Assembly: GCF_000332055.1 (NCBI RefSeq)
Contig: NZ_ALVZ01000225.1
Coordinates: 15,173-47,172, forward strand
DNA from: Xenococcus sp. PCC 7305
GTDB taxonomy: Bacteria; Cyanobacteriota; Cyanobacteriia; Cyanobacteriales; Xenococcaceae
DNA length: 32,000 bases
Reading direction: 5' to 3'
The notes below the pieces were generated by a model. It was given only the letters and a program-made list of their open reading frames with translations, searched no databases and was not told where the DNA came from. The position numbers and the translations under genes were made by a program. Positions within the stretch are counted from its first letter, which is position 1. Every line of letters begins with the position of its first letter. This document shows, piece after piece, positions 7,776-32,000 of this stretch.

Positions 7776-7924
7776 TGGACAGCAAAGCAAAAGCCAGAAC
7801 CAAAAAAAAGATCGATATGATCTCTGTCAAGCAACAGCTCCAAGAGGTTAGAAAAACCTTAGAAAAGAGCAACAAGCGCCTCAAGCGGGAATCTCAGTCA
7901 AGAATCAATCACTGCCCGTTTTAA
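7775..7924 (+). CDS. small basic ORF (49 aa), second of an overlapping pair
   Basis: Translation is MDSKAKARTKKKIDMISVKQQLQEVRKTLEKSNKRLKRESQSRINHCPF. The TAATG overlap with the previous ORF suggests coupling. Confidence 0.35.
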   Translation: MDSKAKARTKKKIDMISVKQQLQEVRKTLEKSNKRLKRESQSRINHCPF

Positions 7925-7927
7925 AAA

Positions 7928-7976
7928 CTTCCTACTTCCTACTTTCTACTTCCTACTCCCTACTTTCTACTTTAAA
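7928..7976 (+). repeat. heptanucleotide tandem array A (CTTCCTA/CTTTCTA/CTCCCTA x6) ending in CTTTAAA
   Basis: Read directly as cttccta cttccta ctttcta cttccta ctcccta ctttcta ctttaaa. It is the reverse complement of the unit used at 31071-31119 and 31417-31458. Confidence 0.9.
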
Positions 7977-8149
7977 ACCATGCCTATCAACGGATTGACA
8001 GATCGTGCAACGATCGCAAACAACATTATCGCGGGGGTCCCTACCCTCAACGCAGTAGGGTAAGGAACGGAGTGTTTAAGCGCCTGGCAAAGCACAGGCG
8101 GCAGCTCCTCGGGATAGCGCACTAATTCAAGGGCTCGATGCCCGCAGAA

Positions 8150-8359
8150 TCAGTTACTAGGGCTATCTTGTGCCTCGATGTATTTTCTAATTCTTTCGAT
8201 AGTTGCACCGCCACAGCTGGCAATGTAATATGAGCTTGACCAAAAGACTGGTTTAGAATAGACTTTTTCGACTTCAGGCTTGAACTCTTTCCTTATGATT
8301 CTGCTAGAAGCACTTTTGAGACTTGCTACTAATTGAGCAACATTATTGTCTGTAAAAAA
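8150..8359 (-). pseudogene. tnpA: IS200/IS605 Y1 transposase (tnpA) C-terminal remnant, no start codon and no HUH motif
   Basis: The minus-strand frame reads FFTDNNVAQLVASLKSASSRIIRKEFKPEVEKVYSKPVFWSSSYYIASCGGATIERIRKYIEAQDSPSN*. This matches the C-terminal half of TnpA (lKg.sSr.lrkEF...fWs.sYf..s.Gg...e.i.kYIe.Q). An in-frame stop precedes it and it runs straight into the tnpB ATG at 8362. Confidence 0.75.
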
Positions 8360-8361
8360 TT

Positions 8362-9648
8362 ATGTTAACACGACGCATCACATTCAGGCTGTATCCTTCA
8401 AATTCTCAAGAACAGAAACTGTTCTGGGCAAGAAGAATGCACGCTTATTTGTACAATGCAGCTGTGTGCAACAGAAAAACTCAGTACCAAAGATTAGGCC
8501 ATTCGGTTGATTATTTTGAACAGCAAGCTTCATTGCCAAAATTTAAAGAAGTTTGGACAGAGTATAAAGAGCTTAATGCAGGTTCACTGCAAGCTACTTT
8601 AAAGCGAGTAGATTTTGCTTTTGTTCGTTTCTTTCAAGGACTAGGTGGTTATCCAAAATATCGTTCAATTAGAAAGTATTCTGGCTGGACTTATCCTGAC
8701 GGCAGACAAGGTTTCAAAGCTCATACTGAAGGTAAGAATGGTTATTTAGAGTTAAGAGACTTAGGGTTTAAAGTCCAAATGCGAGGTCAAGCTCGAACTT
8801 GGGGAAAGCCCACTACCTGCACTATCGTTTATCGTTCAGGTAAATGGTATGCCTCTATCACGGTCAGATGTTTTCCTACTAGAAAACTTGGGAAAGGAGC
8901 AATTGGGCTTGATTTTGGCTGCAAAACTGCTATAGCCGATAGCAATGGGAAGCAAGTTAAGCCTCCTAAGTTTCTAGCTAATGCTCAAAATGAAATCAAT
9001 CAATTGTCAAAGCAGCTAAGGAGAAAGAGAAGGCCAGAGAAGAGAAAACATAAAGGGTCTCGCCGCTGGAAAAAAGTACAAAGCAAGATCTCCAAACTCA
9101 AGAAAAAGATTGCAAATCAGCGTCAAAATTGGGTTCATCATCAAGCAGTAGAGATAGTAAGCTGTAATAGCCTCATTGCCACAGAGAAGTTGAACATCAA
9201 AAACATGACGCGTAAAGCCAAAAAAGGCAGCAAAAGAAAGCGACAAAAAGCTGGGCTAAATCGTTCAATGCTGGATGTTGGGATAGGGATGCTTAAGAAA
9301 GCGATTGCCTATAAGGCCAAGGAAGCTGGAGCAATTTATCTAGAGGCTCCGACAAAAAGCTTAAAGCCAACTCAAAGATGTGCAATATGCTGGAAACTTA
9401 CTAAAAAAGACTTGTCTGATAGGCTACATGTTTGTTCCAATAAAGATTGTAATCATACTGAAGATAGAGACGTTAATGCTGCTCAAGTTTGTCTCGCTTG
9501 GGCGCGTGGGCAGGAACTGTCCTCGTTGAAGACTGCTGATGAGTCTAGCTCTACTAGAAGCTCCAAAGTTAAAAGCTGCGGAGGCTTTCAGCAACTAGCT
9601 CAGGTGAAGCGTCAGAAACTCATGGCTCAACGAAGTAGCCATGAGTAG
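8362..9648 (+). CDS. tnpB: TnpB (IS605 OrfB-type RNA-guided nuclease), 428 aa, catalytic residues present
   Basis: N-terminus RRITFRLYPSNSQEQKL. RuvC-I GLDFGCKTAIADSNG, RuvC-II LIATEKLNIKNM, zinc ribbon CAICWK...CSNKDC and RuvC-III DRDVNAAQ are all present. It has a long C-terminal tail. Confidence 0.85.
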   Translation: MLTRRITFRLYPSNSQEQKLFWARRMHAYLYNAAVCNRKTQYQRLGHSVDYFEQQASLPKFKEVWTEYKELNAGSLQATLKRVDFAFVRFFQGLGGYPKYRSIRKYSGWTYPDGRQGFKAHTEGKNGYLELRDLGFKVQMRGQARTWGKPTTCTIVYRSGKWYASITVRCFPTRKLGKGAIGLDFGCKTAIADSNGKQVKPPKFLANAQNEINQLSKQLRRKRRPEKRKHKGSRRWKKVQSKISKLKKKIANQRQNWVHHQAVEIVSCNSLIATEKLNIKNMTRKAKKGSKRKRQKAGLNRSMLDVGIGMLKKAIAYKAKEAGAIYLEAPTKSLKPTQRCAICWKLTKKDLSDRLHVCSNKDCNHTEDRDVNAAQVCLAWARGQELSSLKTADESSSTRSSKVKSCGGFQQLAQVKRQKLMAQRSSHE

Positions 9649-9670
9649 TTCATAGGGACCGAAAAAGAAG

Positions 9671-9919
9671 CTAGAGGAGATCGCCAAATATCTGGCAAAG
9701 ACCGAGAAAGTTAAGTTCATCAAGCTTTTTCCACCCAGTCAAGAGAGAAGAGGTTTTGCTATAGCTGATTCTTTCTTGTCTTTCGTACCAAGCTTCGGTT
9801 CTAGCAGCCAAAGCTTTGTTATAGACCAAACGCACACATCCCATTGTTCGGCGCAAGAGATTTTCTTGTTCGAGCGTGGGGTAAAAACGAAATTTGTAGG
9901 CACGTTCAGTCATGCTCAC
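9671..9919 (-). pseudogene. tnpB: N-terminal fragment of a different tnpB (about 70 native residues)
   Basis: MTERAYKFRFYPTLEQENLLRRTMGCVRLVYNKALAARTEAWYERQERISYSKTSSLLTGWKKLDELNFL is a typical TnpB N-terminus. The reading frame then ends within 10 codons where the neighbouring element begins. Confidence 0.75.
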
Positions 9920-9970
9920 ATTATGCCAAATTAAATGTAAAGTCAGCCACTTAGGAATGCGCGAAGAAAG

Positions 9971-10546
9971 ATGAATAAACCAATAACAAGACTTGCGGCT
10001 TCTTCACCCCAGGCAAACCAATTAACAAAGCACAATACAACTGAAGGCGCGATCGCGAAAGTAATCTTAAAAAAGGACTTAAGGGCTCTCACTGAGATCG
10101 AACGAGTTCAATACAATTTTGCTTTGTGCCGAACAATTGGACTAAACCCTTTGACGAATCCGATTGACTACCTTGACAGCAATGGGAAATTAGTTCCTTA
10201 TGTCAACGCAACTGGCGTTGCTCAGCTCAGAGCGATCCATGGCATTAGTACTAAGATAACTAATCGGCTAACCGATAAAGAAAACTTCCATCACGTGACG
10301 GCTGTGGCGACTGATCCTCAAGGAAGAAGCGAAGAAAGCGTCGCTATCCTGGCTCTGGTCGATAAGTACGGAAAACCTTTGAAGGGGCAAAAGAAAGCGG
10401 ATCAGATGATGAAATGCTGCACCAAGGCGAAAAGAAGAGCTACCTTGGCATTGATGGGTATTCCTTGGACTGATGGAGAAAGCATTAATAGATCTCGTAG
10501 CTTTGATCCTCCCAGTGATATTCTTCCCATTGAAGATGATTTTTAA
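9971..10546 (+). CDS. possible single-strand annealing protein (RecT/Red-beta-like), 191 aa
   Basis: The pattern LCRTIGLNPLTNPIDYL..NGKLVPYVNATGVAQLR...CCTKAKRRATLALMG resembles phage annealing proteins (..tKA.RRA.l...G). This is recollection only and no search was run. Confidence 0.35.
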   Translation: MNKPITRLAASSPQANQLTKHNTTEGAIAKVILKKDLRALTEIERVQYNFALCRTIGLNPLTNPIDYLDSNGKLVPYVNATGVAQLRAIHGISTKITNRLTDKENFHHVTAVATDPQGRSEESVAILALVDKYGKPLKGQKKADQMMKCCTKAKRRATLALMGIPWTDGESINRSRSFDPPSDILPIEDDF

Positions 10547-14418: not shown

Positions 14419-15642
14419 ATGCCTAAAATTGAAAAGTTAACTAAAGAACAAGAAGCAAAGCTTCCTGAGTATCGAGATAAGTGGCTTGCGATCGGTCTGT
14501 CCACTAATCCAGGGGACGAGAAGATTGCAGAAGAGGCGATTAAAGAAAGCTATCGTCAAGTTAATTTGAACTTCCCCAAGAAGATTATTTGGTGCGATTC
14601 CCCTTTGAGTCTTGTTTTGGTTGACTCTATTTTCAAAAGGGATTCAGTCGGGGATTCAGTCGGGGATTCAGTCGGGGATTCAGTCGGGGATTCAGTCAGG
14701 GATTCAGTCAGGAATTCAGTCTGGGATTCAGTCGGGGATTCAGTCTGGGATTCAGTCTGGGATTCAGTCGGGGATTCAGTCTGGGATTTAGTCAGGGATT
14801 CAGTCAGGGATTCAGCCAGGGCTTCAGTCAGGGCTTCAGTCAGGGATTCAGTCTGGGCTTCAGTCGGGGCTTCAGTCTGGGCTTCAGTCGGGGATTCAGT
14901 CGGGGCTTCAGTCGGGGATTCAGTCTGGGATTCAGTCAGGGATTCAGTCAGGAATTCAGTCTGGGATTCAGTCTGGGATTCAGTCGGGGATTCTTGTTTT
15001 GGGTCGCATGATGCCCACTGGCTGGGATTTTATGATTTTTTTGCGACGGAGCTGCAAATTCAGGAAGCTCATCGCTTAGAGCCATTAAATCTAATTGCTC
15101 AGCATTGCGGTTGGTGGATTCCTAGGGAAAAAGTTTGCCTTGTTTCTAAAAAACCTATCATTTGCACTGTCAACGATCGGGGAGAGTTGCACAACGAAAC
15201 AACAGCAGCTATTGCCTATAGAGACGGGTTTTCTGTTTATGCAATCAACGGAGTTGTGGTTCCTGAAAAAGTAGTAGTTGAGCCAAAAACGCAAACTATT
15301 CAAGAGATCCAAGAAGAATCTAATGTTGAGGTCAAGAGGATTAGGATCGAAAAGTATGGTCACGAAAAATATCTTTACGAGGCTAGGGCTCGACTTCTCG
15401 ACAGCACTACGATCCGTCCTGAGCAGGGAACTCCTTGGATGGAAAGCTTGTATAAAATCGATGAGAGTCTTTCTGTGTTAGTAACCTGCGACCCTTCGAC
15501 AGGAAGAGTTTATTTTTTGGATGTTCCCGCTAGCTGCCAATCTTGTCTTGAGGCTCAACACTATTTGCAGGCTCCCGAGTTGATTCTACAAGGAACGGGT
15601 TTTGATTTCCCTATTACCACTTATCCAAAACTGAGGACTTAA
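14419..15642 (+). CDS. repeat protein: 29 x (D/A/N)S(V/A)(G/R/W) tetrapeptide tract plus conserved C-terminal domain (DUF6745-like from memory)
   Basis: Continuous ORF through the 348-nt repeat. The C-terminal segment WWIPREKVCLVSKKPIICTVNDRGELHNETTAAIAYRDGFSVYAINGVVVPEKVV...ESNVEVKRIRIEKYG resembles a family I recall as DUF6745. Confidence 0.6.
   Translation: MPKIEKLTKEQEAKLPEYRDKWLAIGLSTNPGDEKIAEEAIKESYRQVNLNFPKKIIWCDSPLSLVLVDSIFKRDSVGDSVGDSVGDSVGDSVRDSVRNSVWDSVGDSVWDSVWDSVGDSVWDLVRDSVRDSARASVRASVRDSVWASVGASVWASVGDSVGASVGDSVWDSVRDSVRNSVWDSVWDSVGDSCFGSHDAHWLGFYDFFATELQIQEAHRLEPLNLIAQHCGWWIPREKVCLVSKKPIICTVNDRGELHNETTAAIAYRDGFSVYAINGVVVPEKVVVEPKTQTIQEIQEESNVEVKRIRIEKYGHEKYLYEARARLLDSTTIRPEQGTPWMESLYKIDESLSVLVTCDPSTGRVYFLDVPASCQSCLEAQHYLQAPELILQGTGFDFPITTYPKLRT
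14641..14988 (+). repeat. 29 tandem copies of a 12-nt unit (consensus GATTCAGTCNGG), in frame
   Basis: Counted directly. Unit position 10 is G in 11 copies, A in 9 and T in 9. Position 2 is A or C and position 1 is G or A. There are only two other substitutions in 348 nt. Confidence 0.95.
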
Positions 15643-19691: not shown

Positions 19692-20255
19692 TTGAGCCTG
19701 CTCAAAAGAAAACTACCAGCACTAGAGTTTCTTGCGATCGCAAAAGTTGGAGATTTTGTTACTACTCCCAGTAGAGGAAAAATTGGCAAACTGATTCAGC
19801 TTGAAGACAAGCCCAATGGATCAACAGTTGCTCAAGTACTATGGGAAAATTCTTTTTCGACCGAAGCTTGCTGTCCTTCGGTCTTGCAGCGAATCGAGCC
19901 GGAGCTTTTAGATTGCCAATGGGTAGAAGGAAAAGGGTTTGTCCGTCCTTTTGATAAGAAAGCTTGCTACGACCTCAAGGAGTTGTGGGGTTTTACTAGA
20001 ACCTTGTGGGAAGAGCCTCAAAAGAAATGGGCTTGCGATCGCTATAATGCGATCGCCTCTGTTTGGTTTCGAGAACAAAATTTAGTGGAAAAAGAAGATC
20101 GTCGATACGCGATCGCGAATATCTTTCGTGGTTCTGGTCTGACCACCTTGGCTTGCTATTTGGTTAAGGATAAAGCGGTGACTTCCTTTTTCTATCCTCA
20201 CGAAGTTAAGCGAGTCAGCGTTGCCGAACAGATTAGATTTTTGACAAATTTTTGA
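19692..20255 (+). CDS. hypothetical protein (187 aa); true 5' end uncertain, stop codon supplied by the IS end
   Basis: The frame is open upstream to 19578 without a start codon. TGA at 20253-20255 lies inside the TTGAC terminus of the adjacent TnpB element. Confidence 0.5.
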   Translation: MSLLKRKLPALEFLAIAKVGDFVTTPSRGKIGKLIQLEDKPNGSTVAQVLWENSFSTEACCPSVLQRIEPELLDCQWVEGKGFVRPFDKKACYDLKELWGFTRTLWEEPQKKWACDRYNAIASVWFREQNLVEKEDRRYAIANIFRGSGLTTLACYLVKDKAVTSFFYPHEVKRVSVAEQIRFLTNF

Positions 20256-20291
20256 CCTACTCCCACGGCTGAAGCACGTGGGATTCGAGGC

Positions 20292-21413
20292 TCATGCAGA
20301 GATTGCAGCAGATAGCTGACTGACATCTCCTACCCTCAGAGTTGAAGCCCCAACTCTTAAAATGTTGACCGCTGCATTAGTATCACGCCCGTGCTTACAA
20401 CTACATGATGGGCAAGCCCAATAACGTTCAGCTAAAGACAATTCATCCAAAACATAGTCACAGCTAGAGCAAGTTTTAGATGATGGATACCATCGATCAA
20501 TATAACTAACAATCTTTCCTTTCTTTTGGGCAACAAACTCTAGTATTTTGAGAAACTCGCTAAAGGCCAAATCTCCTATCTTGCGCCCCCAGAGCCTTTG
20601 CATTCCTTTGAGGTTAAGAGTTTCAAAATAAAGATAATCATAGCCATCGGTTAACTGATGAGCTAATTTCCAGAACCAATCGCTTCGGCGGTTGGTTACC
20701 TTCTCATGAACTCTGACTAAATTTTTTCTAGCTTTTTCCCTTGAGTTTGAGCGTTTTTGCTTCCGAGAAAAATCACGGCTGGCTAACTTTAATCGCTTTA
20801 AAGACTGCTTAAGGAATAGAGGTGAATCAATGTCATTGCCATCAGAGCAAGTTAAAAATGTTTTTAACCCAAAATCAAAACCCGCGCTTTTACCCGTCAT
20901 GGAAGTGATTTGATAATCAACATGATCTGTTACTACAAAGATGAACAACTCCCCTAGGGGATTTCTTTTAATAGTTACAGTTTTAACTTTCCCTTGGATT
21001 TCTCTACTTTTCCAATAGCGATAAATTTTGTTGCCAATTTTAAGTTGATTGTTATCTAGAAATTTATACCCTGCTTGTTTAAGAGTGAATGACTTATATT
21101 TAATCCTCTTCCTAAAATTAGGTGGCCTGACTCCTTTTTTATGATGCTTGAAAAATAACTGATAAGCTCTATCGATTCGCTGCGCAATATCTTGGACAGC
21201 TTGAGAACCTACTAATTGCCAGTACTCATTTTTTCTCCTGAGTTTAGCAATATGCTTCATTAACCTATTTTTGTTTAAGTGCTTACCAAACATAGAATAA
21301 TAACGCTTATGCAAAGCTATGCAGTGGTTATAAATATTTCCTGCTGCATTAATTGAGCGATGCAAATGCTTATTTTTCTTATGCTGGTATAACTTAAATT
21401 TGTAGGTCTCCAT
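20292..21413 (-). CDS. tnpB: TnpB RNA-guided nuclease (373 aa), catalytic residues present
   Basis: METYKFKLYQHKKNKHL. RuvC-I AGFDFGLKTFLT, RuvC-II YLYFETLNLKGM, zinc ribbon CSSC...CPSC and RuvC-III GRDTNAAVNI are present. Confidence 0.9.
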   Translation of the reverse strand: METYKFKLYQHKKNKHLHRSINAAGNIYNHCIALHKRYYSMFGKHLNKNRLMKHIAKLRRKNEYWQLVGSQAVQDIAQRIDRAYQLFFKHHKKGVRPPNFRKRIKYKSFTLKQAGYKFLDNNQLKIGNKIYRYWKSREIQGKVKTVTIKRNPLGELFIFVVTDHVDYQITSMTGKSAGFDFGLKTFLTCSDGNDIDSPLFLKQSLKRLKLASRDFSRKQKRSNSREKARKNLVRVHEKVTNRRSDWFWKLAHQLTDGYDYLYFETLNLKGMQRLWGRKIGDLAFSEFLKILEFVAQKKGKIVSYIDRWYPSSKTCSSCDYVLDELSLAERYWACPSCSCKHGRDTNAAVNILRVGASTLRVGDVSQLSAAISA

Positions 21414-21455
21414 GTGTCTATGATAGCATAATCATAAACACAAATCAAATTATAA

Positions 21456-21854
21456 ATGGCGCAAAAATATCGACACAAAATTACTTCTGTGACTTTAATT
21501 AATTATCATTTTGTTTGGTGTCCAAGAAGACGAAAAAAAGTGTTAAAGGGGTTAGTTGCTGAACGACTGAAGCAATTAATAATTGAGGCTTGCCAAGAAA
21601 TTGATGTGACAGTATTAGCAATGGAAGTTATGAGCGATCATGTTCATGCTTTCTTAAATTGCCCTCCAACCCTTGCACCTTACCAAGTCATGCATAAAGT
21701 TAAGGGTTACACTGCCAGATACTTAAGACGAGAATTCAAAGAGCTACTTAAGCTTCCTTCAATGTGGACTAGAAGTTATTTTTGCTCTACTGCTGGGAAT
21801 GTTTCATCTAGTACTATTGAGAAATATATCGCTCAACAAAAAACCCGTGGCTAG
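21456..21854 (+). CDS. tnpA: IS200/IS605 Y1 (HUH) transposase TnpA, 132 aa
   Basis: YHFVWCPRRRKKVL, the HUH motif SDHVHAFL, KVKGYTARYLRREF and a C-terminal catalytic-Tyr helix STIEKYIAQQ. The gene is divergent from tnpB with a 42-nt gap. Confidence 0.9.
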   Translation: MAQKYRHKITSVTLINYHFVWCPRRRKKVLKGLVAERLKQLIIEACQEIDVTVLAMEVMSDHVHAFLNCPPTLAPYQVMHKVKGYTARYLRREFKELLKLPSMWTRSYFCSTAGNVSSSTIEKYIAQQKTRG

Positions 21855-22080
21855 AATATTTCATCCCACGGCTAAAGCACGTGGGCTTTCCTTTGCTGTA
21901 AACGGTAAGTGCGATCGCTCTAGGCAAGTGAATGCTCAATAACCAACCAAGTAGCTTGAGGATTAAATCCATTTCCTGCCAAGTCAGCAGCCTCAAACCC
22001 ATGCTCAGTCATAGTTTAAGCTAATTTTTTTGAGCGAAAGTCAGCACCTTTTATAATTGATTTGACGCTCGGCATTGCAA

Positions 22081-22749: not shown

Positions 22750-22944
22750 ATGACACAGCAACTACTCGAAGCTCAAGTAGCTTCATCAGAATTTGACGAG
22801 CGACCCCGCGCCGCCGACAGGCGTTTATCCTCGAATGGGGACAAGGGAACCCCCATTCGAGGACAAGCGCGCGAGTTTGATGCACTAGCATTCGAAATCA
22901 AGCATTTTGAAGATTATCAAAGATTAAACACTCCCTACTACGAA
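22750..22944 (+). pseudogene. N-terminal half of a gene split by a TnpB element
   Basis: The ATG is at 22750 (MTQQLLEAQ...RLNTPYYE). The next 7 codons and the stop come from the IS end. The paralogue at the window end reads ...PYYEILSDYDYND without interruption. Confidence 0.7.
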
Positions 22945-24187
22945 TTGACATACTCCCCGCCCTAAAGGTGCGGAGATTCTGGGATCAAGCAGCAATTGCG
23001 CCCAAAGAGCGTCTTACATCGCCTAGCCCAAGAGAAGATGCCCCTTCTCTTTTAATGTTCTTAGCTGCATTCAAATCTCGATCCAACTTGGAGCCACAAC
23101 CAGGACAATCCCAAACCCTATCTTTGAGAGTTAATTCTTTATTGTGATATCCACAATCAAAACAAGTTTTGGAGCTGGGATAAAACCGATCAATAAAATG
23201 TATTGTCTTTCCTTTATTCCTAGCTACTGTTTCCAGGATTTCTAAAAAAGTTGAGAAAGATAAATCACTGACTTTTCTCCCCCACAACTTTTTCATTCCT
23301 CTAAGATTTAAATCTTCAAAAATTAGCACATCATAATCATTTGTCAATTTATGGGCTAACTTCCAAAACCAATCTCTACGTTTATTGGAAATTCGCTCAA
23401 ATACTCGATTGAGATTGTCTTTGGCCTTGTACCAATTATTAGAACCTTTTTTCTTCTTAGAAAGATTTCTGCTAGCAGCTTTCAACAAATGTCTAAACTC
23501 ATTAAAAAACAAAGGAGATTTGATAGTTGTTAAGTCACTTGCAGTTAAAAATGTTTTTAACCCAAAATCGAAGCCTGCAATTTTACCTGTCACGACTCCG
23601 AAAGATTCATCTTTATAGCCAGTTACCACTAAGATAAATAACTCACCAAGATGATTGCGCTTAACCGTCAGCGTTTTAATCTTTCCTTTTATTTCTCTAC
23701 TTTTCGAAAATTTATAAATTTTATTCCCTATCCGAATTTTGTTGTCTTCTAAGAACCTGTATCCTGCTTGCTTTAGAGTGAATGATTTATATTTTCTGGT
23801 CTTTTTGAAGTTAGGGGGTCTTGTCCCTGACTTGCATTGCTTAAAAAATAATTTATAGGCTTTATCGATTCTTTGACAAATATCTTGTACTGCTTGGGAG
23901 CCAACTTGCTGCCAATATTTTATTCGTCTTCTAAGCTTAGCAATATGCTTCATGAGCCTGTACATGTTCAAGTGCTTACCAAAGATTTTGTAGTATCTTT
24001 TATGCAAGGCAATACAATGATTGTAGATACTTCCACTAGCATTGATTTGCCAATTCAGGTATCTATTCTTCTTTGACTTGTATAGCTTGAACTTGTACGT
24101 TTTCATGAGAATATTTTATCATGAATTACTTGATTAGTACTAAAGAATTACGCCCTGAAGGGCGGGGCTTTAAACCCATGATTTTAG
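22945..24187 (-). mobile_element. tnpB-only IS200/IS605-type element inserted in a coding sequence
   Basis: RE is TTGACATACTCCCCGCCCTAAAGGTGCGGAGATTC at 22945 onward. LE is TTACGCCCTGAAGGGCGGGGCTTTAAACCCATGATTTTAG(G), ending at about 24187. GTAA (TTAC on the element strand) lies at 24188-24191. Boundaries are supported by the empty paralogous site. Confidence 0.75.
22985..24106 (-). CDS. tnpB: TnpB RNA-guided nuclease (373 aa), close paralogue of 20292-21413
   Basis: MKTYKFKLYKSKKNRYL. RuvC-I AGFDFGLKTFLT, RuvC-II VLIFEDLNLRGM, zinc ribbon CFDC...CPGC and RuvC-III DRDLNAAKNI are present. Confidence 0.9.
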   Translation of the reverse strand: MKTYKFKLYKSKKNRYLNWQINASGSIYNHCIALHKRYYKIFGKHLNMYRLMKHIAKLRRRIKYWQQVGSQAVQDICQRIDKAYKLFFKQCKSGTRPPNFKKTRKYKSFTLKQAGYRFLEDNKIRIGNKIYKFSKSREIKGKIKTLTVKRNHLGELFILVVTGYKDESFGVVTGKIAGFDFGLKTFLTASDLTTIKSPLFFNEFRHLLKAASRNLSKKKKGSNNWYKAKDNLNRVFERISNKRRDWFWKLAHKLTNDYDVLIFEDLNLRGMKKLWGRKVSDLSFSTFLEILETVARNKGKTIHFIDRFYPSSKTCFDCGYHNKELTLKDRVWDCPGCGSKLDRDLNAAKNIKREGASSLGLGDVRRSLGAIAA

Positions 24188-24394
24188 GTAATCGCTAAGT
24201 TCGACTATAACGACGGAATCAACAAATTCACTCTTCTTGCCGATTGTTTCATCGCAGGACATTACTATCGCGACCCCTGGAGCTCCGATTGGATTGGCAA
24301 ATCTTATTGCAATGGCAATAGCGAAGAAGTTCTTTTCTCCACTAGAGATTTAGCCGTGGCTTACCTTAAACGCCAATATCTCGCATCCTGTTAA
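24188..24394 (+). pseudogene. C-terminal half of the split gene (paralogue of 31780-31983)
   Basis: VIAKFDYNDGINKFTLLADCFIAGHYYRDPWSSDWIGKSYCNGNSEEVLFSTRDLAVAYLKRQYLASC* is nearly identical in length and sequence to the minus-strand ORF at 31780-31983. It has no start codon, and a TAG inside the IS end immediately precedes it. Confidence 0.75.
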
Positions 24395-24450: not shown

Positions 24451-25143
24451 ATGCCAAACATAGAAATTTTCAATTTTGAAGAGCAGCCAGTTCGTTTTGT
24501 TGGTACAGCAGAAAAGCCTTTGTGGGTAGGAAAAGATATTTGCGATATTTTGAGCCTTTCGAAGTATAGGGATGCCTTGGCAAGATTGGACTCAGATGAA
24601 AGGGAGCTGGTATTACTGGACACCCCTGGAGGTAAACAGTCAGTAACGTGCATTAACGAATCGGGAATGTATTCTCTGATCTTTGACTCGCGAAAACCCC
24701 AAGCAAAAAGATTAAAAAAATGGGTGACTTCTGAAGTCTTGCCTAGTATTCGCAAAACTGGGAGTTACGCGATCGCACAAAGCTCCGCTTCGCAGTCAGC
24801 AAAAAACGAATCCACTCTTTCAATTCAAGATCAAATCCTAATTGCTAATTTTGGAGCTGAATCAGCGATCAACGCAGGAGTCTCGAAGCCGATCGCAGAA
24901 TCAATTAAGTTAGATTCACTAGGAAACGTTTTACCTGAAGCCAAGCCATTATTGCTTCCTCAAAAAAATGCGATCGCATCTGCTAATCCCATTGAAGAGC
25001 AGCCTGTCTCTCCGACAATTATTGGGCAAAGAGTTGCCGCCAAAATGGGGCTGGACAAGGTTTCTGCGATCGCGGTCAACAAAAAACTGCTATCTCTTGG
25101 CTATCAACTATCAGTCACTAGATTGACATGCTCTCCGACCTGA
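24451..25143 (+). CDS. BRO-N domain phage antirepressor-like protein, 3' end altered by IS insertion
   Basis: GGAGG lies 7 nt upstream of the ATG at 24451. FEEQPVRFVGTAEKPLWVGKDICDILSL...INESGMYSLIFDSRKPQAKRLKKWVTSEVLPSIRKTGSY is the Bro-N signature. The last 6 codons and the stop are IS end sequence. Confidence 0.8.
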   Translation: MPNIEIFNFEEQPVRFVGTAEKPLWVGKDICDILSLSKYRDALARLDSDERELVLLDTPGGKQSVTCINESGMYSLIFDSRKPQAKRLKKWVTSEVLPSIRKTGSYAIAQSSASQSAKNESTLSIQDQILIANFGAESAINAGVSKPIAESIKLDSLGNVLPEAKPLLLPQKNAIASANPIEEQPVSPTIIGQRVAAKMGLDKVSAIAVNKKLLSLGYQLSVTRLTCSPT

Positions 25144-26517
25144 AGGTACGGAGATTCTAGCACCTCACGACGCTAGCTTTCTGCTTCGACCTGTGCCAAC
25201 TAGAGCATCGTGACCGATACTCCCCGTCGCTTCCAGTCCACAGACATTTTCAACCACGCTATGCCCTAGCGCAGAGACTCCTCTATTTCTTATTTCTTGG
25301 CTAGCTGCTACGTCCCTTGTAGTTCTATATCCACACTCACCGCAATGATGAAAGCGAATATCTAAAGTTTTCTTGCCTGTATGTGCGCCACAGTTAGGGC
25401 AAGTTTGGCTTGTCCCATCTTTATTGACCACAGCAAAATACACATCACGACGGAAACATACCCACTCAAGAATACTTACAAACTGGCCAAATCCAGCATC
25501 GGCACTATGTTTTGAAAGCATTCCTCTTTGCCAAGAAACGAAATTGATGTCTTCTACGAATATCATTCCTGTTCCATCACAAAGATGATGAGCTAATTTA
25601 AAGTGCCAATCTTTTCTGGTGTCAGATATTCGTTGATGCAGTCTAGCTATTTTTTGATTAAGCTTGTGTCGATTATTTGAGCCCTTGTGCTTATTCTTTA
25701 ACCTGCGTTGTAGCAATTTAAGCTTACGATGCATGAGCTTTAAGAATCGAGGTCGTTTAATTTCTTCTCCATCACTGGTGGCAACAAATTTGTCGTATCC
25801 TAAATCCAATCCCCTAGGATGACCATGCGGCAATGGATTTGGGGTATCGACCTTTAGCTGTAATGACAACATCACGAAATAACCAGACGCTTTTCTAACG
25901 ACCCTTGCTTGCTTGACTTCAAAACCTTCAGGAATATCTCTTGATTTGCGCCATCTAATCCACCCAAATTTTGGCAGCTTAATAGCATCATCTTTGATTG
26001 GATTTTTCCCTAGTTGAGGAAAAACAAATGAGCGCATTCGATACCTATTTTTGAACCGAGGGAATCCAAACCCTCTAGATCTCATATCGTCCCAAGCTCT
26101 ATCTAATATTCTTAAAGTTTGCTGTAACACTTGAGAATGAACAGAACTTAATGCAGGATAGAGCTTTTTTGCATCTGTTAGCTGTTTGGCTTGTTGGTGA
26201 TAGCTAGGGAATGGTTCATCAACAGAGATTATATATTCTGAATTAATCGAGCAGGCATTTACAAGAGACTTACGAGAGTTACACCAGTCTTTGCGCTGTC
26301 TGAGCGCAAAATTCCAAACAGAACGACAAATATCGAGTGTTTTTTCGATGTCAGTAATTTGCTCTTTTGTTGGCTGTAGCTTGTATTCGTAAGTCATTGT
26401 TAGCATTTAGCTATTATAGCTTACATGGGGAGCGGCAGCATGTAAAGTTTTGAGCAAGTCAATATACAGGAAGGCTTACGCCCTAAAGGGCGAGGTTTTA
26501 GACCCATGATCCCAAGG
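25123..26517 (-). mobile_element. tnpB-only IS200/IS605-type element, with ends like 22945-24187 but a different TnpB
   Basis: RE is TTGACATGCTCTCCGACCTGAAGGTACGGAGATTC at 25123 onward. LE is TTACGCCCTAAAGGGCGAGGTTTTAGACCCATGATCCCAAGG, ending at 26516 or 26517. Confidence 0.7.
25165..26406 (-). CDS. tnpB: TnpB RNA-guided nuclease (413 aa), distinct subfamily
   Basis: TYEYKLQPTKEQITDIEKTL. RuvC-I RGLDLGYDKFVATSDG, RuvC-II MIFVEDINFVSW, zinc ribbon CPNC...CGEC and RuvC-III TRDVAASQEI are present. Confidence 0.85.
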   Translation of the reverse strand: MLTMTYEYKLQPTKEQITDIEKTLDICRSVWNFALRQRKDWCNSRKSLVNACSINSEYIISVDEPFPSYHQQAKQLTDAKKLYPALSSVHSQVLQQTLRILDRAWDDMRSRGFGFPRFKNRYRMRSFVFPQLGKNPIKDDAIKLPKFGWIRWRKSRDIPEGFEVKQARVVRKASGYFVMLSLQLKVDTPNPLPHGHPRGLDLGYDKFVATSDGEEIKRPRFLKLMHRKLKLLQRRLKNKHKGSNNRHKLNQKIARLHQRISDTRKDWHFKLAHHLCDGTGMIFVEDINFVSWQRGMLSKHSADAGFGQFVSILEWVCFRRDVYFAVVNKDGTSQTCPNCGAHTGKKTLDIRFHHCGECGYRTTRDVAASQEIRNRGVSALGHSVVENVCGLEATGSIGHDALVGTGRSRKLAS

Positions 26518-28173: not shown

Positions 28174-28510
28174 CGTTTTTGTCCTCTTTTTGTAAATAGC
28201 AAAATGCTTGTATAGGGAACCCGTTTCCTAAGTGGAAGCAAGAATAGATAGCCGTTAGTTCAATGGAGCGATCGTCAAAATATTGTCTTAAAAACTCTTG
28301 CGACCAAGCAGGGGATCCGTATGGGAATTTCTTCGAGGCTTTTGACCGAGCAAGTTTGTCTTTTTCGTAGTCCCACTGACTCAGGCGATCGCTATAAACT
28401 CCATGATCACCCTCTTTTCTTTGCCCCCAAATTAGTCTTTCTGTTGCAAATCGGCGATCGGTGCAATGCGGCGAGAAATTAGGGGTTTTTTGAGTTGACA
28501 ATGTCTTCAT
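28163..28510 (-). CDS. hypothetical protein (115 aa)
   Basis: It overlaps both neighbours (32 nt and 11 nt) in one minus-strand operon. Confidence 0.4.
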   Translation of the reverse strand: MKTLSTQKTPNFSPHCTDRRFATERLIWGQRKEGDHGVYSDRLSQWDYEKDKLARSKASKKFPYGSPAWSQEFLRQYFDDRSIELTAIYSCFHLGNGFPIQAFCYLQKEDKNDDI

Positions 28511-29453
28511 TTTTCTTACTCCATTGTTTAATTAAATCTTCTACTCCATCAGAAAGACAGCTATATTTTGTCAAAAGCTCAGCGCAGAGAATAGGGTCTA
28601 TTTTTAGGTAAACCTTATTTTCTACAGGCAACAAAAACTGATAACTGATGTCAGGGATTATTTGTTCGCCACGTTGTATAGTCGCTCCAAATTCTCCAGC
28701 TTCTGTGATGCGGACGTGAGAGCCTTTGTGTCCAACAAGCGCTGGATGCTCCGAATCTTTCTTGACCATCGCCAAGCTTCCGACGGCCGGATTTTTCCGC
28801 TTTTTGTCTCGTAGTTCAATCCTAGACGCTTTGGTTCGCGCCTCGTAGGGATGGAGATCTGGTAGCTGACTTTCAAGTTCTATTACCTCTTTTTTCGTTA
28901 AGTTTTTTGTAACCGCAGATGGTGCGATCCCTGCCTTATCCGCGATCGCATTTACGGATTCGGCGTATTTACCGTCACGCTTGATTGTTTTGGCACTTAC
29001 CCCATGCTCAGCAGCTAGTTTTTCGGCTGTGTTAGTTTTAGCTCTTGTAGGTGTTAAGGGGACATTTTGTCCCTTTACCTGTTGATCGTCCCCGCCTTTT
29101 TGTTCGTTATAAATCAAGCCTCGAAAGTAAGAAACTAGATTTGGTGGCAAGTTGCGACGACCAAGCTGGTTTTTGATCATCCATTTTTTGACTGATGAGC
29201 GATCGCTAAACTTTAGCCGGAGAACATTAAATTCGATGTCTTCCTGTTGGCAAATTTCGTAGCGGTGATGACCATCAATAATAATGTCTTGATCTTTCCA
29301 GACAATTATTTCTGGAGTGATGTCACCTGTAAGAAGGTTTTCCTTGAGCTGCGATCGCGCTTCGGGGGTCAGAGGTGGCAGTAGTCGCTGAAACTCAGGA
29401 TCGATCTTAAGTTTAGGCAAGGATGGCACGATTTTAAGTTGAGCTACCATCAT
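28479..29453 (-). CDS. ParB-like nuclease-domain protein with C-terminal HTH region
   Basis: KIDPEFQRLLPPLTPEA...IIVWKDQDIIIDGHHRYEICQQEDIEF...NQLGRRNL is the ParB/Srx N-terminal domain signature (DGHHR). Confidence 0.75.
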   Translation of the reverse strand: MMVAQLKIVPSLPKLKIDPEFQRLLPPLTPEARSQLKENLLTGDITPEIIVWKDQDIIIDGHHRYEICQQEDIEFNVLRLKFSDRSSVKKWMIKNQLGRRNLPPNLVSYFRGLIYNEQKGGDDQQVKGQNVPLTPTRAKTNTAEKLAAEHGVSAKTIKRDGKYAESVNAIADKAGIAPSAVTKNLTKKEVIELESQLPDLHPYEARTKASRIELRDKKRKNPAVGSLAMVKKDSEHPALVGHKGSHVRITEAGEFGATIQRGEQIIPDISYQFLLPVENKVYLKIDPILCAELLTKYSCLSDGVEDLIKQWSKKNEDIVNSKNP

Positions 29454-29545
29454 CTAATCTCCAGGGGACTCCCGTTAAAGCCGACAGGCTTAGCGGGAGG
29501 GGAATGGAGGTCAACAAATAACCTGAGCGTAGCGAATCCCTTTTT

Positions 29546-30820
29546 TTAGTAAACATAATTGTATCCGTCGTTTTTATGGACATGAGTTAAGTATTTTGGA
29601 TGAACATCAAACTTCTTATCAGGTAACTGAAGAACAAAACTAGGACGAAATCTAATAGCAATTCTGCCTAGATATTGACCTGTAAATTTACCTTTAAGGA
29701 TAGATGCCGATACCAAATCTCCTGTTTGAAATCCTCGAAAGAATTTAGCTTTAGAAGCATGGCTTTTGGGGAATCCAAACTTGTTAGGACGGCATCGTTG
29801 CCTTGTTCCGTGACCTGTTGCCTTAATCAACAAGGGTTGATTAGTTTTAAAGATTAGATCCTTAGAAAGTTGACCTACACAAGCAGCATCTTGCCAATGA
29901 GTCTTGGGAACTTTTAATTGTTTGCGATTAAACTTAGTCAATCCTCCACTCCCTGTCTCTACTGGGAATCCAAATTCTTTGAGCGAATTAAATAATTTCC
30001 AACGGGTAGAATTAACAGCGGCAGCATCCTTTAAAGGAGTCTTTGCTTGCTTTAAAATACGGTTAATCAAGTCAGGCTTCTCTTTTAGAAAGTCCTTGAT
30101 ATCTTGGTTCCCCTTAGATTGATTACAGTCATGACAAGCTAAAGTTAAATTGGAGACTCGATCAGAGCCACCTTTTGAGCGGGCTTTGATATGGTCAACC
30201 TCAAAAGGAACATTTTGTGCCCCACAATATTGACAGGTACGATTAAACTTATTTAGCAGGTACTCTCGAACCTCCCAACCGTAAAGAGTTCCGTGTTGAT
30301 ACTCAACTCCACTAATCTCAGGGTTCTCCTGTTTTTGTAAGTCAAATTTAACCAACTCAACAGAAATTGAATCTACAGGGCAATATCTTATTAATCTTTT
30401 AACCCAAGTTAAAGTAGTATCTACTCGATGCTGGAGGCTTGGGGGGAGCCAACCTTTGGGGCGAGTTCTGTTAAGAAATCTTGGTTGACGATAACGGGTT
30501 TTACGTCCTCGCCTTCCTTTTCTTAATTGTCGCCTTGAGGTTAATTTATCCTTGATATGTTGTCCTCTATGCTGTAATTCCGCTCCCCAAATAACCCGAT
30601 TGTTTTGCAACAACGCAATTCCAGTTTTTTGAGAACCTGGGTCAAGCTTTAATTTGACATTCTTCTGAGTTTCTTTTGCTTCCTCCTTGAGAATAATAGT
30701 GAAAGGATAACGCCGAAATACAGCAGCCTTCCCCTCTGTTAATAATCGTCTTGCCTGCCCAGGATGAACAGGGTTTAACGGGTTTTTAACTGTATCTAGA
30801 ACAAAAACATAATTTTGCAT
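29546..30820 (-). CDS. iscB: IscB RNA-guided nuclease (PLMP domain, split RuvC, HNH insert), 424 aa
   Basis: PLMP-like NPLNPVHPGQARRLLTEGKAAV, RuvC-I KLDPGSQKTGIAL and bridge helix RRQLRKGRRGRKTRYRQPRFLNRTRPKGW. RuvC-II ISVELVKFD, HNH CQYCG...EVDHIKARSKGGSDRVSNLTLACHDCNQSKGN and RuvC-III THWQDAACVG. Confidence 0.85.
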   Translation of the reverse strand: MQNYVFVLDTVKNPLNPVHPGQARRLLTEGKAAVFRRYPFTIILKEEAKETQKNVKLKLDPGSQKTGIALLQNNRVIWGAELQHRGQHIKDKLTSRRQLRKGRRGRKTRYRQPRFLNRTRPKGWLPPSLQHRVDTTLTWVKRLIRYCPVDSISVELVKFDLQKQENPEISGVEYQHGTLYGWEVREYLLNKFNRTCQYCGAQNVPFEVDHIKARSKGGSDRVSNLTLACHDCNQSKGNQDIKDFLKEKPDLINRILKQAKTPLKDAAAVNSTRWKLFNSLKEFGFPVETGSGGLTKFNRKQLKVPKTHWQDAACVGQLSKDLIFKTNQPLLIKATGHGTRQRCRPNKFGFPKSHASKAKFFRGFQTGDLVSASILKGKFTGQYLGRIAIRFRPSFVLQLPDKKFDVHPKYLTHVHKNDGYNYVY

Positions 30821-31064
30821 TTTAAGTCTCCCGTTAGGGGTAATGTTTGCCTCGCTTGGTTATCTAACTTTGTTCGGTCTAATTCACTGGATTAACCCGT
30901 TTAGTCCTGTTTAAAATTAAACGACAGAGCTTAAAGCTGGCACGTACCTTAAGGTGTCATAAGTTAAATAACGTTTACTGAAGTTTTCAGTAAGCTGGTC
31001 ACCTTGCGGACTTTTTCAAGCCCCCGTTAAATTGCGGAGCAATTAACGGTGGGTCGGTGACGGG
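30821..31064 (-). ncRNA. candidate IscB omega-RNA scaffold
   Basis: 244 nt with no ORF directly upstream of iscB on the same strand. Nested helices: 30998-31003 with 31056-61, the 31021-31053 hairpin and the 30977-30991 hairpin. OMEGA IscB systems encode their guide RNA in this position. Confidence 0.55.
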
Positions 31065-31070
31065 TTTAAA

Positions 31071-31158
31071 GTAGTAAGTAGTAAGTAGGAAGTAGTAAGT
31101 AGGAAGTAGTAAGTAGGAAGTCGTTAAAACTTTCTACTTTCTACTCTCTACTTCCTAC
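31071..31158. repeat. heptamer array B: 7 x GTAG(T/G)AA, an 11-nt spacer, then 4 inverted units (TTTCTAC-type), forming an imperfect palindrome
   Basis: Read directly. Forward units are at 31071-31119, the spacer GTCGTTAAAAC at 31120-31130 and inverted units at 31131-31158. TTTAAA precedes it at 31065-31070. Confidence 0.9.
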
Positions 31159-31407
31159 TTTCAAGATCTCCTCTATATGTTTAGCGTCGGCAACTACTTG
31201 TTTAAAGGCTTGTCTGCCTTGTGCGATCGCTTTTTCTTTGTCGGCCATTGATTCGCCGATTAAAGTTCGATTCTCTAAATAAGAGCGAACCCAATATTTG
31301 TAGCTGGGTGGGCGATCGGGCTCTGTGACCTCAACTAAGTTCAGGACGCAGCTTGCTTCTTTTGCGATCGTCTCTTCGACGTAGGTTTTTCCTGGGGCAA
31401 TTGGCAT
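31141..31407 (-). CDS. hypothetical protein (88 aa) bracketed by heptamer arrays
   Basis: The ATG lies 3 nt after TTTAAA of array C (minus strand). The last about 9 codons (ILKVGSRE) are encoded by the inverted heptamer units. Confidence 0.45.
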   Translation of the reverse strand: MPIAPGKTYVEETIAKEASCVLNLVEVTEPDRPPSYKYWVRSYLENRTLIGESMADKEKAIAQGRQAFKQVVADAKHIEEILKVGSRE

Positions 31408-31416
31408 GGCTTTAAA

Positions 31417-31458
31417 GTAGGGAGTAGGAAGTAGGGAGTAGGAAGTAGGGAGTAGGAA
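31417..31458 (+). repeat. heptamer array C: 6 x alternating GTAGGGA / GTAGGAA, preceded by TTTAAA
   Basis: Read directly. TTTAAA is at 31411-31416. Confidence 0.9.
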
Positions 31459-31526
31459 GTTATAAATATTTTACTGGCAAGCTGAACACAATGTTTCTTG
31501 CTTTATACAAAAAACATCTATGCTTC

Positions 31527-31779: not shown

Positions 31780-32000
31780 TTAACAAGATGCTGCGTACTG
31801 GCGTTTCAAATAAGCAACAGCTAAATCTCTAGTGGAGAAAAGAACCTCTTCGGTATTGCCGTTACAGAAAGATTTGCCAACCCAATCGGAGCCCCAGGGG
31901 TCGCGATAGTATTGCCCTGCAACGAAACAATCGGCGAGAAGGGTAAATTTGTTGATTCCGTCGTTATAGTCGTAATCGCTCAAGATTTCGTAGTAGGGAG
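31780..32000 (-). CDS. uninterrupted paralogue of the IS-split gene, 5'-partial at window edge
   Basis: The track starts it at TTG 31983, but the frame stays open to nt 32000 (…PYYEILSDYDYND). It matches the junction of the two halves at 22750-22944 and 24188-24394. Confidence 0.7.
   Translation of the reverse strand, partial: PYYEILSDYDYNDGINKFTLLADCFVAGQYYRDPWGSDWVGKSFCNGNTEEVLFSTRDLAVAYLKRQYAASC

Follow-up and report, generated by a model that had tools for sequence, protein, structure and literature searches.

Capped heptanucleotide arrays ahead of start codons in a prophage region of Xenococcus sp. PCC 7305

The stretch of Xenococcus sp. PCC 7305 DNA analysed here in its whole length of 32,000 nt (the window) carries three arrays of the heptanucleotide CTNNCTA, named A, B and C. 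They are paralogous to each other and make up a small prophage-borne family of cyanobacterial heptanucleotide tandem repeats. The arrays are best read as belonging to a class already known from cyanobacteria, heptamer repeats close to start codons, which includes short tandemly repeated repetitive (STRR) and TAACTGA-type sequences. In arrays A and C a diverged terminal unit, the cap, stands directly before an ATG that has no Shine-Dalgarno (SD) sequence, and array B would have had the same geometry before an IscB element was inserted next to it. The chances are about even that the capped arrays are start-proximal heptamers which act as leaders at the RNA level, their link to insertion sequences (IS) being secondary.

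Structure of the capped arrays and their start codons

Unit-by-unit reading and Tandem Repeats Finder confirmed the three arrays described in the original prediction, together with the unit family CT(T/C)(C/T/A)CTA and the common ending ...CTACTTTAAA. The coordinates given there for array A, on the plus strand, were retained, while those of B and C, on the minus strand, had left out the cap and now read 31065-31120 and 31411-31459; a fourth array, B', had been missed. The arrays are as follows.

Array A, 7928-7976, plus strand: six units at 7928-7969 (CTTCCTA, CTTCCTA, CTTTCTA, CTTCCTA, CTCCCTA, CTTTCTA), cap CTTTAAA at 7970-7976, then ACC and an ATG at 7980
Array B, 31065-31120, minus strand: seven units at 31120-31072 (CTTCCTA, CTTACTA, CTTCCTA, CTTACTA, CTTCCTA, CTTACTA, CTTACTA), cap CTTTAAA at 31071-31065, then CCC and the start of the HEARO model at 31061
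Array C, 31411-31459, minus strand: six units at 31459-31418 (CTTCCTA, CTCCCTA, three times over), cap CTTTAAA at 31417-31411, then GCC and an ATG at 31407
Array B', 31130-31164, plus strand: units at 31130-31157 (CTTTCTA, CTTTCTA, CTCTCTA, CTTCCTA), then CTTTCAA to 31164

All four sites are heptanucleotide tandem repeats, as evident from the period of 7 and the 4.9-7.6 copies returned by Tandem Repeats Finder, which placed the capped arrays at 7927-7972 (6.6 copies), 31069-31121 (7.6) and 31415-31460 (6.6). Three consecutive CTNNCTA units are matched 15 times in the window as compared to 0 times in 100 dinucleotide-preserving shuffles. The first unit CTTCCTA, the terminal CTTTAAA and a following ACC, CCC or GCC are common to A, B and C, and the TTTAAA is best read as belonging to a diverged terminal heptamer, CTTTAAA, which is two positions off the unit CTTTCTA. 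The internal units are homogenised within each array, with a period of 14 in B and C and of 21 in A. Homology between A and C continues 11 nt past TTTAAA, and a change of strand and 23 kb separate array A from B and C. Array B' is inverted with respect to B, from which a 14-nt gap separates it, and it ends in CTTTCAAG and not in TTTAAA; read antisense, it provides the last codons and the TAG stop of an 88-aa open reading frame (ORF). Together, B' and B are predicted to form a hairpin of ~30 bp (−38.4 kcal/mol, z = −4.85). The genes next to the arrays are listed below.

ORF of 49 aa, stop at 7922-7924: upstream of array A
ORF of 27 codons, 7980-8063, plus strand: led by array A, with ~13-15 native codons and the remainder from the left end of the element IS-1
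ORF of 88 aa, 31141-31407, minus strand: led by array C, its end and TAG stop coming from B' antisense
ParB-like gene, 28479-29453, minus strand: ATGA(TGG) start, probably the gene originally led by array B

The 27-codon and 88-aa ORFs are as the original prediction had them. The cap ends 3 nt before the ATG in both A and C, and each array is oriented forward, toward that start. Array A occupies the 55-nt gap between the upstream stop and the ATG at 7980, starting 3 nt after the stop, and all three capped arrays lie in intercistronic spacers between co-oriented genes. Since the left end of IS-1 falls inside the 27-codon ORF, the latter is what is left of a gene cut off near codon 14. In the ParB-like protein the conserved domain begins at residue 14; this would fit a complete N-terminus but is no proof of it. 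Homologues of the protein were found only at 47% identity or less.

The array-led starts carry no GGAG, GAGG or AGGA at positions −18 to −4, and an SD-like tetramer is present at 17 of 40 starts in the window. The purine content of the 20 nt upstream of the array-led starts is 0.30, among the lowest in the window. Capped arrays have no G on the sense strand, and A and C are unpaired in predicted RNA folds. A cap directly before an ATG, with no SD sequence, is thus the original geometry at A and C, and presumably was at B. Forward orientation toward a nearby start, with no canonical ribosome-binding site (RBS) in between, holds for A and C and, after conceptual removal of IscB, for B. Array B', with neither TTTAAA nor a downstream unit, breaks the common geometry that the original prediction had ascribed to the arrays.

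A programmed −1 frameshift at U UUA AAN was considered and ruled out, as no upstream ORF reads through. By eye, the ORF upstream of A ends 3 nt short of its array and that upstream of C 66 nt short, or else the stop falls within B', and the zero frame before C holds further stops.

The IscB element at array B and the association with insertion sequences

The DNA between array B and the ParB-like gene is taken up by an IscB element, composed of the following parts.

29454-31061, minus strand: IscB element
29546-30820, minus strand: iscB, 424 aa, with RRXRR and HNH domains
30840-31061, minus strand: omega-RNA scaffold (Rfam HEARO RF02033, 127 bits, full length)
29454-29545, minus strand: left-end region, ending ...CCTGGAGATTAG right before ATGATGG
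31062-31077, minus strand: putative omega-RNA guide, the 16 nt 5' of the scaffold, made up of the last array unit, the cap and CCC

In IscB elements the scaffold is bounded by the right end and the guide is read from flanking DNA, while the transposon-adjacent motif (TAM) lies 5' of the left end and the element tends to share the orientation of the upstream gene (Meers et al. 2023). Position 1 of the HEARO model (GUCA...) aligns at 31061, 9 nt after TTTAAA. As the scaffold starts after the cap, array B and CTTTAAACCC are the flank of the right end, in the position of the guide, and lie outside the element. The guide would accordingly read TTACTACTTTAAACCC (also written UUACUACUUUAAACCC), for an assumed length of 16 nt, that of IscB guides. 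An element-boundary test likewise placed neither array B nor its cap inside the IscB boundaries; the 7 other cyanobacterial plasmid IscB loci compared have unrelated flanks, and a heptamer array 5' of the scaffold was found at none of them.

The TAM is located at the opposite (left) end and is not the array or the cap. It is TCAT in the window and CCAT or TCAT at three related loci (L205, L210 and L206), and the TCAT at the left end in the window is the reverse complement of the ATGA start of the ParB-like gene. The left end of the Chroococcidiopsis copy (L205, 2363-2462) finishes in ...CCGGAGGTTT, directly followed by ATGGTG, and that of the Trichormus copy (L210, 2215-2314) in ...CCGAGGATTTTGT, directly followed by ATGAGCC, both exactly at the annotated start codon. 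An NCAT motif, mostly TCAT, is thus found on the top strand of the transposon in this IscB clade, which inserts its left end 3' of NCAT, the reverse complement of ATG. Geobacillus elements have a TTCAT motif, close to the NCAT of this clade (Meers et al. 2023). The target rule of the element itself hence accounts for its landing between cap B and the ATGA start. Excision of IscB in silico joins CTTTAAACCC to ATGATGG at the cap-to-start junction, and its removal would restore CTACTTTAAACCC followed by ATGATGG, with the geometry seen in A and C.

In the window, in L205 and in L210, the left end of this clade was further observed to carry GGAG or GAGG, lying 5-9 nt upstream of the ATG that derives from the TAM and opens the next co-oriented gene; the copy in the window places GGAG 6 nt before the displaced ATG of the ParB-like gene. 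With a TAM that is the reverse complement of ATG and a GGAG of their own, these elements may dock just upstream of starts without silencing the next gene, a by-product of the analysis which is more immediately useful than the arrays. IscB copies were also observed beside partition genes, in the order ParA-iscB-ParB on Trichormus plasmid C and as a parA-parB-iscB remnant in Chondrocystis; in Stanieria, ParA is followed by an RRXRR gene.

The element in the window resembles described IscB/omega-RNA (HEARO) systems (Meers et al. 2023; Altae-Tran et al. 2021) in its scaffold at the right end, its guide in the flank, its TAM at the opposite end and its co-orientation. It differs from them in that the arrays are no component of the system, being merely a flank that is read as guide at one insertion. 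This bears on the central claim of the original prediction, in which the arrays were tied to IS200/IS605-family ends. That such a functional tie exists, with the arrays as part of the ends, as preferred targets or as leaders for IS RNAs, is very improbable. In its favour, an IS boundary lies within 50 nt downstream of 2 of the 4 arrays (P ~5e-4 under uniform placement), and array B would supply the omega-RNA guide. When both features are conditioned on gene starts, the association weakens to P ~0.015 (hypergeometric, by hand, with 3 array-led and 3 IS-adjacent starts among ~35), a post-hoc value from a tiny sample. None of the arrays falls within the element boundaries as mapped; C is without an IS element; the elements IS3, IS4 and IS5 have no array, like the 7 other IscB loci; and the placement of IscB is accounted for by NCAT at start codons, also in the array-free copies.

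The IS605-like locus does follow array A in order, as originally stated, but is not adjacent to it: alignment to the copy on Stanieria pSTA7437.01 puts the left end of IS-1 at ~8020-8025, inside the ORF and 44-48 nt after cap A. Docking at a start codon has a second case in IS-2: its left end follows TTCAT on the minus strand, and TTCAT is the ATGAA that starts the gene at 9971-10546, in reverse complement. As the IscB TAM is the reverse complement of ATG, the apparent array-IS association is largely explained as a side effect of IS docking at start codons.

One more point in favour of the tie is a resemblance of sequence. CTTTAAANCCATG occurs at exactly three sites in the window, namely A, C and 24168-24180 inside the left end of IS4, and 15 nt (ATCATGGGTTTAAAG) are common to this left end (24168-24185) and site B as reconstructed. 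The left end of IS4-type elements, as derived from four other cyanobacterial copies, reads TTAC followed by C(T/A)AAAATCA(T/C)GGGT(T/C)TAAAGCC and a hairpin, and the right end finishes in GTCAA. These ends match the IS608 recognition code, with TTAC and AAAG at the left and TCAA at the right. Since the left end is conserved in those four copies, GGGTTTAAAG is intrinsic to the IS family of IS4; GGGT(T/C)TAAAG, with its AAAG beside the hairpin, is an intrinsic left-end segment in four other genomes, so that the resemblance to the cap may be chance or convergence. Besides chance, it could possibly reflect an old left end that has left a scar, or convergence toward a start context on the bottom strand that works well without SD.

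Relation to known repeats and possible function

TAACTGA repeats, which are known from Beggiatoaceae, cyanobacteria (including the Pleurocapsales genus Stanieria) and Bacteroidetes (PMC4679880), are forward-oriented and mostly end 1 nt before a start codon with no RBS (MacGregor 2015, PMC4679880); S1, Csp or CsrA have been proposed as their translational readers (PMC4679880). The geometry of the window arrays, which the original prediction had held not to be explained by the label STRR, is therefore already described for this type (PMC4679880). The arrays resemble TAACTGA repeats in being intergenic, forward-oriented tandem 7-nt units (2 to tens in TAACTGA repeats) near a start with no RBS; related heptamers likewise occur in split sets, and an inverted pair is on record. 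They differ in the unit, CT(T/C)NCTA, which is without sense-strand stops, whereas TAACTGA carries TAA and TGA, in the fixed cap CTTTAAA-NCC before ATG, and in their location in a prophage, where four copies were examined. With a different unit, the window arrays are of the same kind as TAACTGA repeats and not of the same family.

STRR and long simple sequence repeats (LSSR) are likewise comparable, the window arrays being heptamers in non-coding cyanobacterial DNA with homogenisation of the slippage type. The classical STRR1-3 units, described in heterocystous genera, are CCCCAGT, TTGGTCA and CAACAGT, and none is matched by the window units CTTCCTA, CTCCCTA, CTTTCTA and CTTACTA. The label STRR says nothing on position relative to start codons, and the original prediction was right that by itself it does not describe where the arrays stand and how they are oriented.

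In Nostoc PCC 7120, deletion of start-proximal heptamer repeats at recF and recO alters reporter output (bioRxiv 10.1101/2022.06.06.494920). Those repeats are similar to the window arrays in being contiguous heptamers near or over start codons with a proposed translational role; they differ in their units (TTTTGAA and GAC-type), in having 3-4 copies and in belonging to chromosomal genes. The omega-repressor heptads of inc18 plasmids (pSM19035), WATCACW, which serve as operators and centromeres, overlap promoters and are bound by a ribbon-helix-helix protein. They too are contiguous 7-bp units, direct and inverted, before several genes including partition genes; their sequence is another one, they act on DNA, and no ribbon-helix-helix protein was found by Pfam or PHROGs near the window arrays.

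The possibility that the window arrays also act on DNA, either as protein-binding heptads or through TACTTT (TANNNT) as the −10 element of a leaderless mRNA starting from the ATG, is improbable. The contiguous direct and inverted (B'/B) 7-bp units before several genes, the ParB-like one among them, would suit it, as would TACTTT, which each of the three copies has 6 nt ahead of the A of its ATG. Against this, a promoter scan called no sigma-70-like promoter at any array, the unit is freely variable at its two central positions, and array A begins 3 nt after the upstream stop inside an apparent operon. Neither a ribbon-helix-helix protein nor another binder was detected by Pfam or PHROGs in the small ORFs nearby, a missing match being no proof.

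The leader reading was set against a survey of other genomes, which covered at least 120 genome loci and at least 120 viral loci with four or more CTNNCTA units and yielded 230 unrelated arrays; an array was taken as start-proximal when it lay no more than 40 nt upstream of an ATG that began an ORF of 80 codons or more. All counts of this survey are among the matches listed. Arrays of this kind occur in many phyla, the cyanobacterial unit is mostly CTCCCTA, and TTTAAA is not a general ending. The start-proximal arrays were oriented as follows.

Genome loci: 22 sense, 5 antisense
Viral loci: 25 sense, 16 antisense (p = 0.21)
Pooled: 47 sense, 21 antisense (p = 0.002)
G-free arrays, pooled: 15 sense, 9 antisense (not significant)

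The refuting condition of the original prediction, that arrays elsewhere show no orientation bias relative to neighbouring genes or IS ends, thus had a mixed outcome, with a modest general sense bias at start codons and no general association with IS. As a separate observation, CTGTCTA-type arrays on Acidobacteriota contigs often form inverted pairs ~60-100 nt apart, recalling B'/B (loci L023, L028, L055, L061, L069 and L073, from metagenome-assembled genomes of Pyrinomonadaceae or Blastocatellia).

The leader role would operate on polycistronic mRNA, where an array would be a G-free tract of C, U and A unable to fold on itself and would present the AUG in an unstructured, pyrimidine-rich leader. 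Initiation could then be independent of SD and rely on a protein that binds single-stranded RNA, ribosomal S1 or a different one, or it could be re-initiation; the output might be tuned as slippage changes the number of units. S1-dependent, SD-independent initiation has been reported in a cyanobacterium (Mutsuda & Sugiura 2006). In the inverted arrays B'/B, the leader would be locked in a long hairpin just past the upstream stop codon. IscB docked exactly between cap B and the ATGA start, whereby array and cap became the flank read as guide, and its left end brings GGAG to 6 nt before the displaced ATG; IS-1 is simply inserted into the ORF led by array A. If the leader function is true, a phage example would be added to the poorly understood SD-replacing heptamer repeats of cyanobacteria, where translation is in large part SD-independent. 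The window arrays, compact and with defined caps, would then be convenient test objects.

Several observations weigh against the leader role. It is deduced from position and composition only, and about half of the window genes also lack an SD sequence, so that its absence is not distinctive. The ParB-like gene is the only recognisable one of the three led genes, and its linkage to array B is a reconstruction; the ORF led by array A is truncated, no homologue of the 88-aa ORF was found among 5.8 billion proteins, and array B' has no downstream gene. In the survey the sense bias was weak at viral loci and not significant for G-free arrays, and only ~20% of the generic arrays were near a start codon. 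A coarser test on flanking ORFs gave no sense bias, with 40 on the same strand vs 75 on the opposite one, i.e. more arrays facing gene 3' ends; this test is noisy, since TAGNNAG stops all three frames. No close prophage relative was found either.

Some of the same facts would be expected if the arrays were neutral products of STRR/LSSR-type slippage from a CTTTAAA-like seed, copied with their flanks in prophage duplications and functionless, a possibility we regard as real yet on balance doubtful. The position before ATG would then only reflect the available non-coding DNA. Heptanucleotides are the most abundant class of long simple sequence repeats in many bacteria, and such repeats are attributed to polymerase slippage, as far as Mrazek (2007) is related in PMC4679880. 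The homogenised units, the several paralogous segments in the window, the orphan ORFs beside the arrays, the overlap of B' with a coding 3' end and the many generic arrays away from gene starts all agree with neutrality. It is opposed by the retention of the first unit, the cap, the 3-nt distance to ATG and the sense orientation in 3 of the 4 copies, despite the opposite strand and 23-kb distance of A, and by the pooled sense bias of the start-adjacent arrays.

A more elaborate form of the leader role is unlikely. The capped arrays would be a portable prophage 'start module', in which CU(U/C)NCUA repeats and CUUUAAANCC-AUG replace the SD sequence, are read by S1 or a phage RNA binder, and set translation by the number of units. 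The CTTTAAANCC-ATG on the outward face of IS608-like left ends would be a shared device keeping the downstream cistron translated. As the guide would be array-derived, the IscB nuclease could home to array-led ATGA genes in related phages.

Searches for relatives of the locus returned little. Megablast against plasmids and phages gave only a 147-nt IS end. A scan for the cap motif had 0 matches in viral contigs and 74 in metagenomes, all of the latter attributable to chance since none had two or more units. ORF64 and ORF67 had no tblastn match in phages, exact-protein look-ups for the locus returned short Logan contigs only, and no heptamer array was present in the first 50 kb of the annotated Stanieria plasmid. 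One Logan contig (L001, SRR3926846_70) joins the window segments 31408-30129, 20296-19238 and 7982-7941, with junctions at 1262-1266 and 2317-2320 that apparently connect cap A to the gene at 19239 and IscB to the IS3 flank. CATG, present in both parents, is found at each of the two junctions and where the contig begins. This points to a restriction-ligation (3C/Hi-C-like) chimera, and the contig was treated as such in preference to a rearranged genome. Array B is 14 nt shorter in it, which is inseparable from k-mer collapse.

Prophage context and the other insertion sequences

The DNA of the window, from Xenococcus sp. PCC 7305, represents a prophage or phage that is rich in the highly iterated palindrome HIP1 and carries six IS200/IS605-family elements. 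Besides IscB, these are as follows.

~8020/8025-9670, plus strand: IS-1, IS605-type, with tnpB (identified by Pfam) at 8362-9648; right end approximate
8162-8335, minus strand: tnpA remnant of IS-1 (tblastn)
9671-9970, minus strand: IS-2, remnant of a TnpB element, with an 82-aa N-terminal fragment (9671-9919) and the left end
20252-21905: IS3, with tnpA and tnpB
22945-24187: IS4, IS608-like
25123-26517: IS5

HIP1 (GCGATCGC) occurs at 57 sites in the whole window as compared to 0.29 expected, in keeping with cyanobacterial DNA. None of the 57 sites is in IS200/IS605 DNA (8020-9970, 20252-21905, 22945-24187, 25123-26517 and 29454-31061), which amounts to 7.85 kb or 24.5% of the window and where ~14 would be expected. 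By this measure, the IS elements look like recent or non-ameliorated arrivals and the phage genes have a host-like HIP1 density. Phage-type genes in the window encode a GP7 capsid protein, Rha, a Cro/CI-type repressor, Bro-N, a C5 methylase and a dCTP deaminase, and an adjoining Logan contig has a DUF4055 gene, of a family mostly annotated as phage portal proteins.

One small ORF has paralogues that are named as proteins of Xenococcus sp. PCC 7305 and encoded on the same 93.8-kb contig. A paralogue on this contig from outside the window, ELS01189.1 (P0123), shares 84% identity with the 64-aa ORF that precedes array C. Its C-terminus, ...KGKVGLK, could be reading into another TAGNNAG array, as in the 88-aa ORF with its ...LKVGSRE*. 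No heptamer array was found in the structural-gene region or in the 8.4 kb left of the window. CTCCCTACTACGAA at 22931 and at the window end was considered as a trace of further arrays and ruled out, being coding sequence of a duplicated gene.

Three further features were observed. The ORF at 14419-15642 (DUF6745) holds ~30 tandem 12-nt units (GGGATTCAGTCG) at 14639-14993, encoding the tetrapeptide repeat DSV(G/W/R). The ORF at 19692-20255 has its TGA stop inside the right-end terminus of IS3 (TTGACC..., 20252-20256), and insertion of IS3 appears to have replaced its native 3' end. An inverted gene duplicate, 22751-22944 plus 24188-24391 vs 31780-32000 on the minus strand, shows 84% aa identity over 67 residues, the copy at 22751-24391 being interrupted by IS4. 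Beside the IS4 left end, 14 nt (GTAATCGCTAAGTT) read as the matching 15 nt (ATCTTGAGCGATTAC) of the intact copy in reverse complement, which suggests that a small in-frame inversion may have occurred at the TTAC target of IS4.

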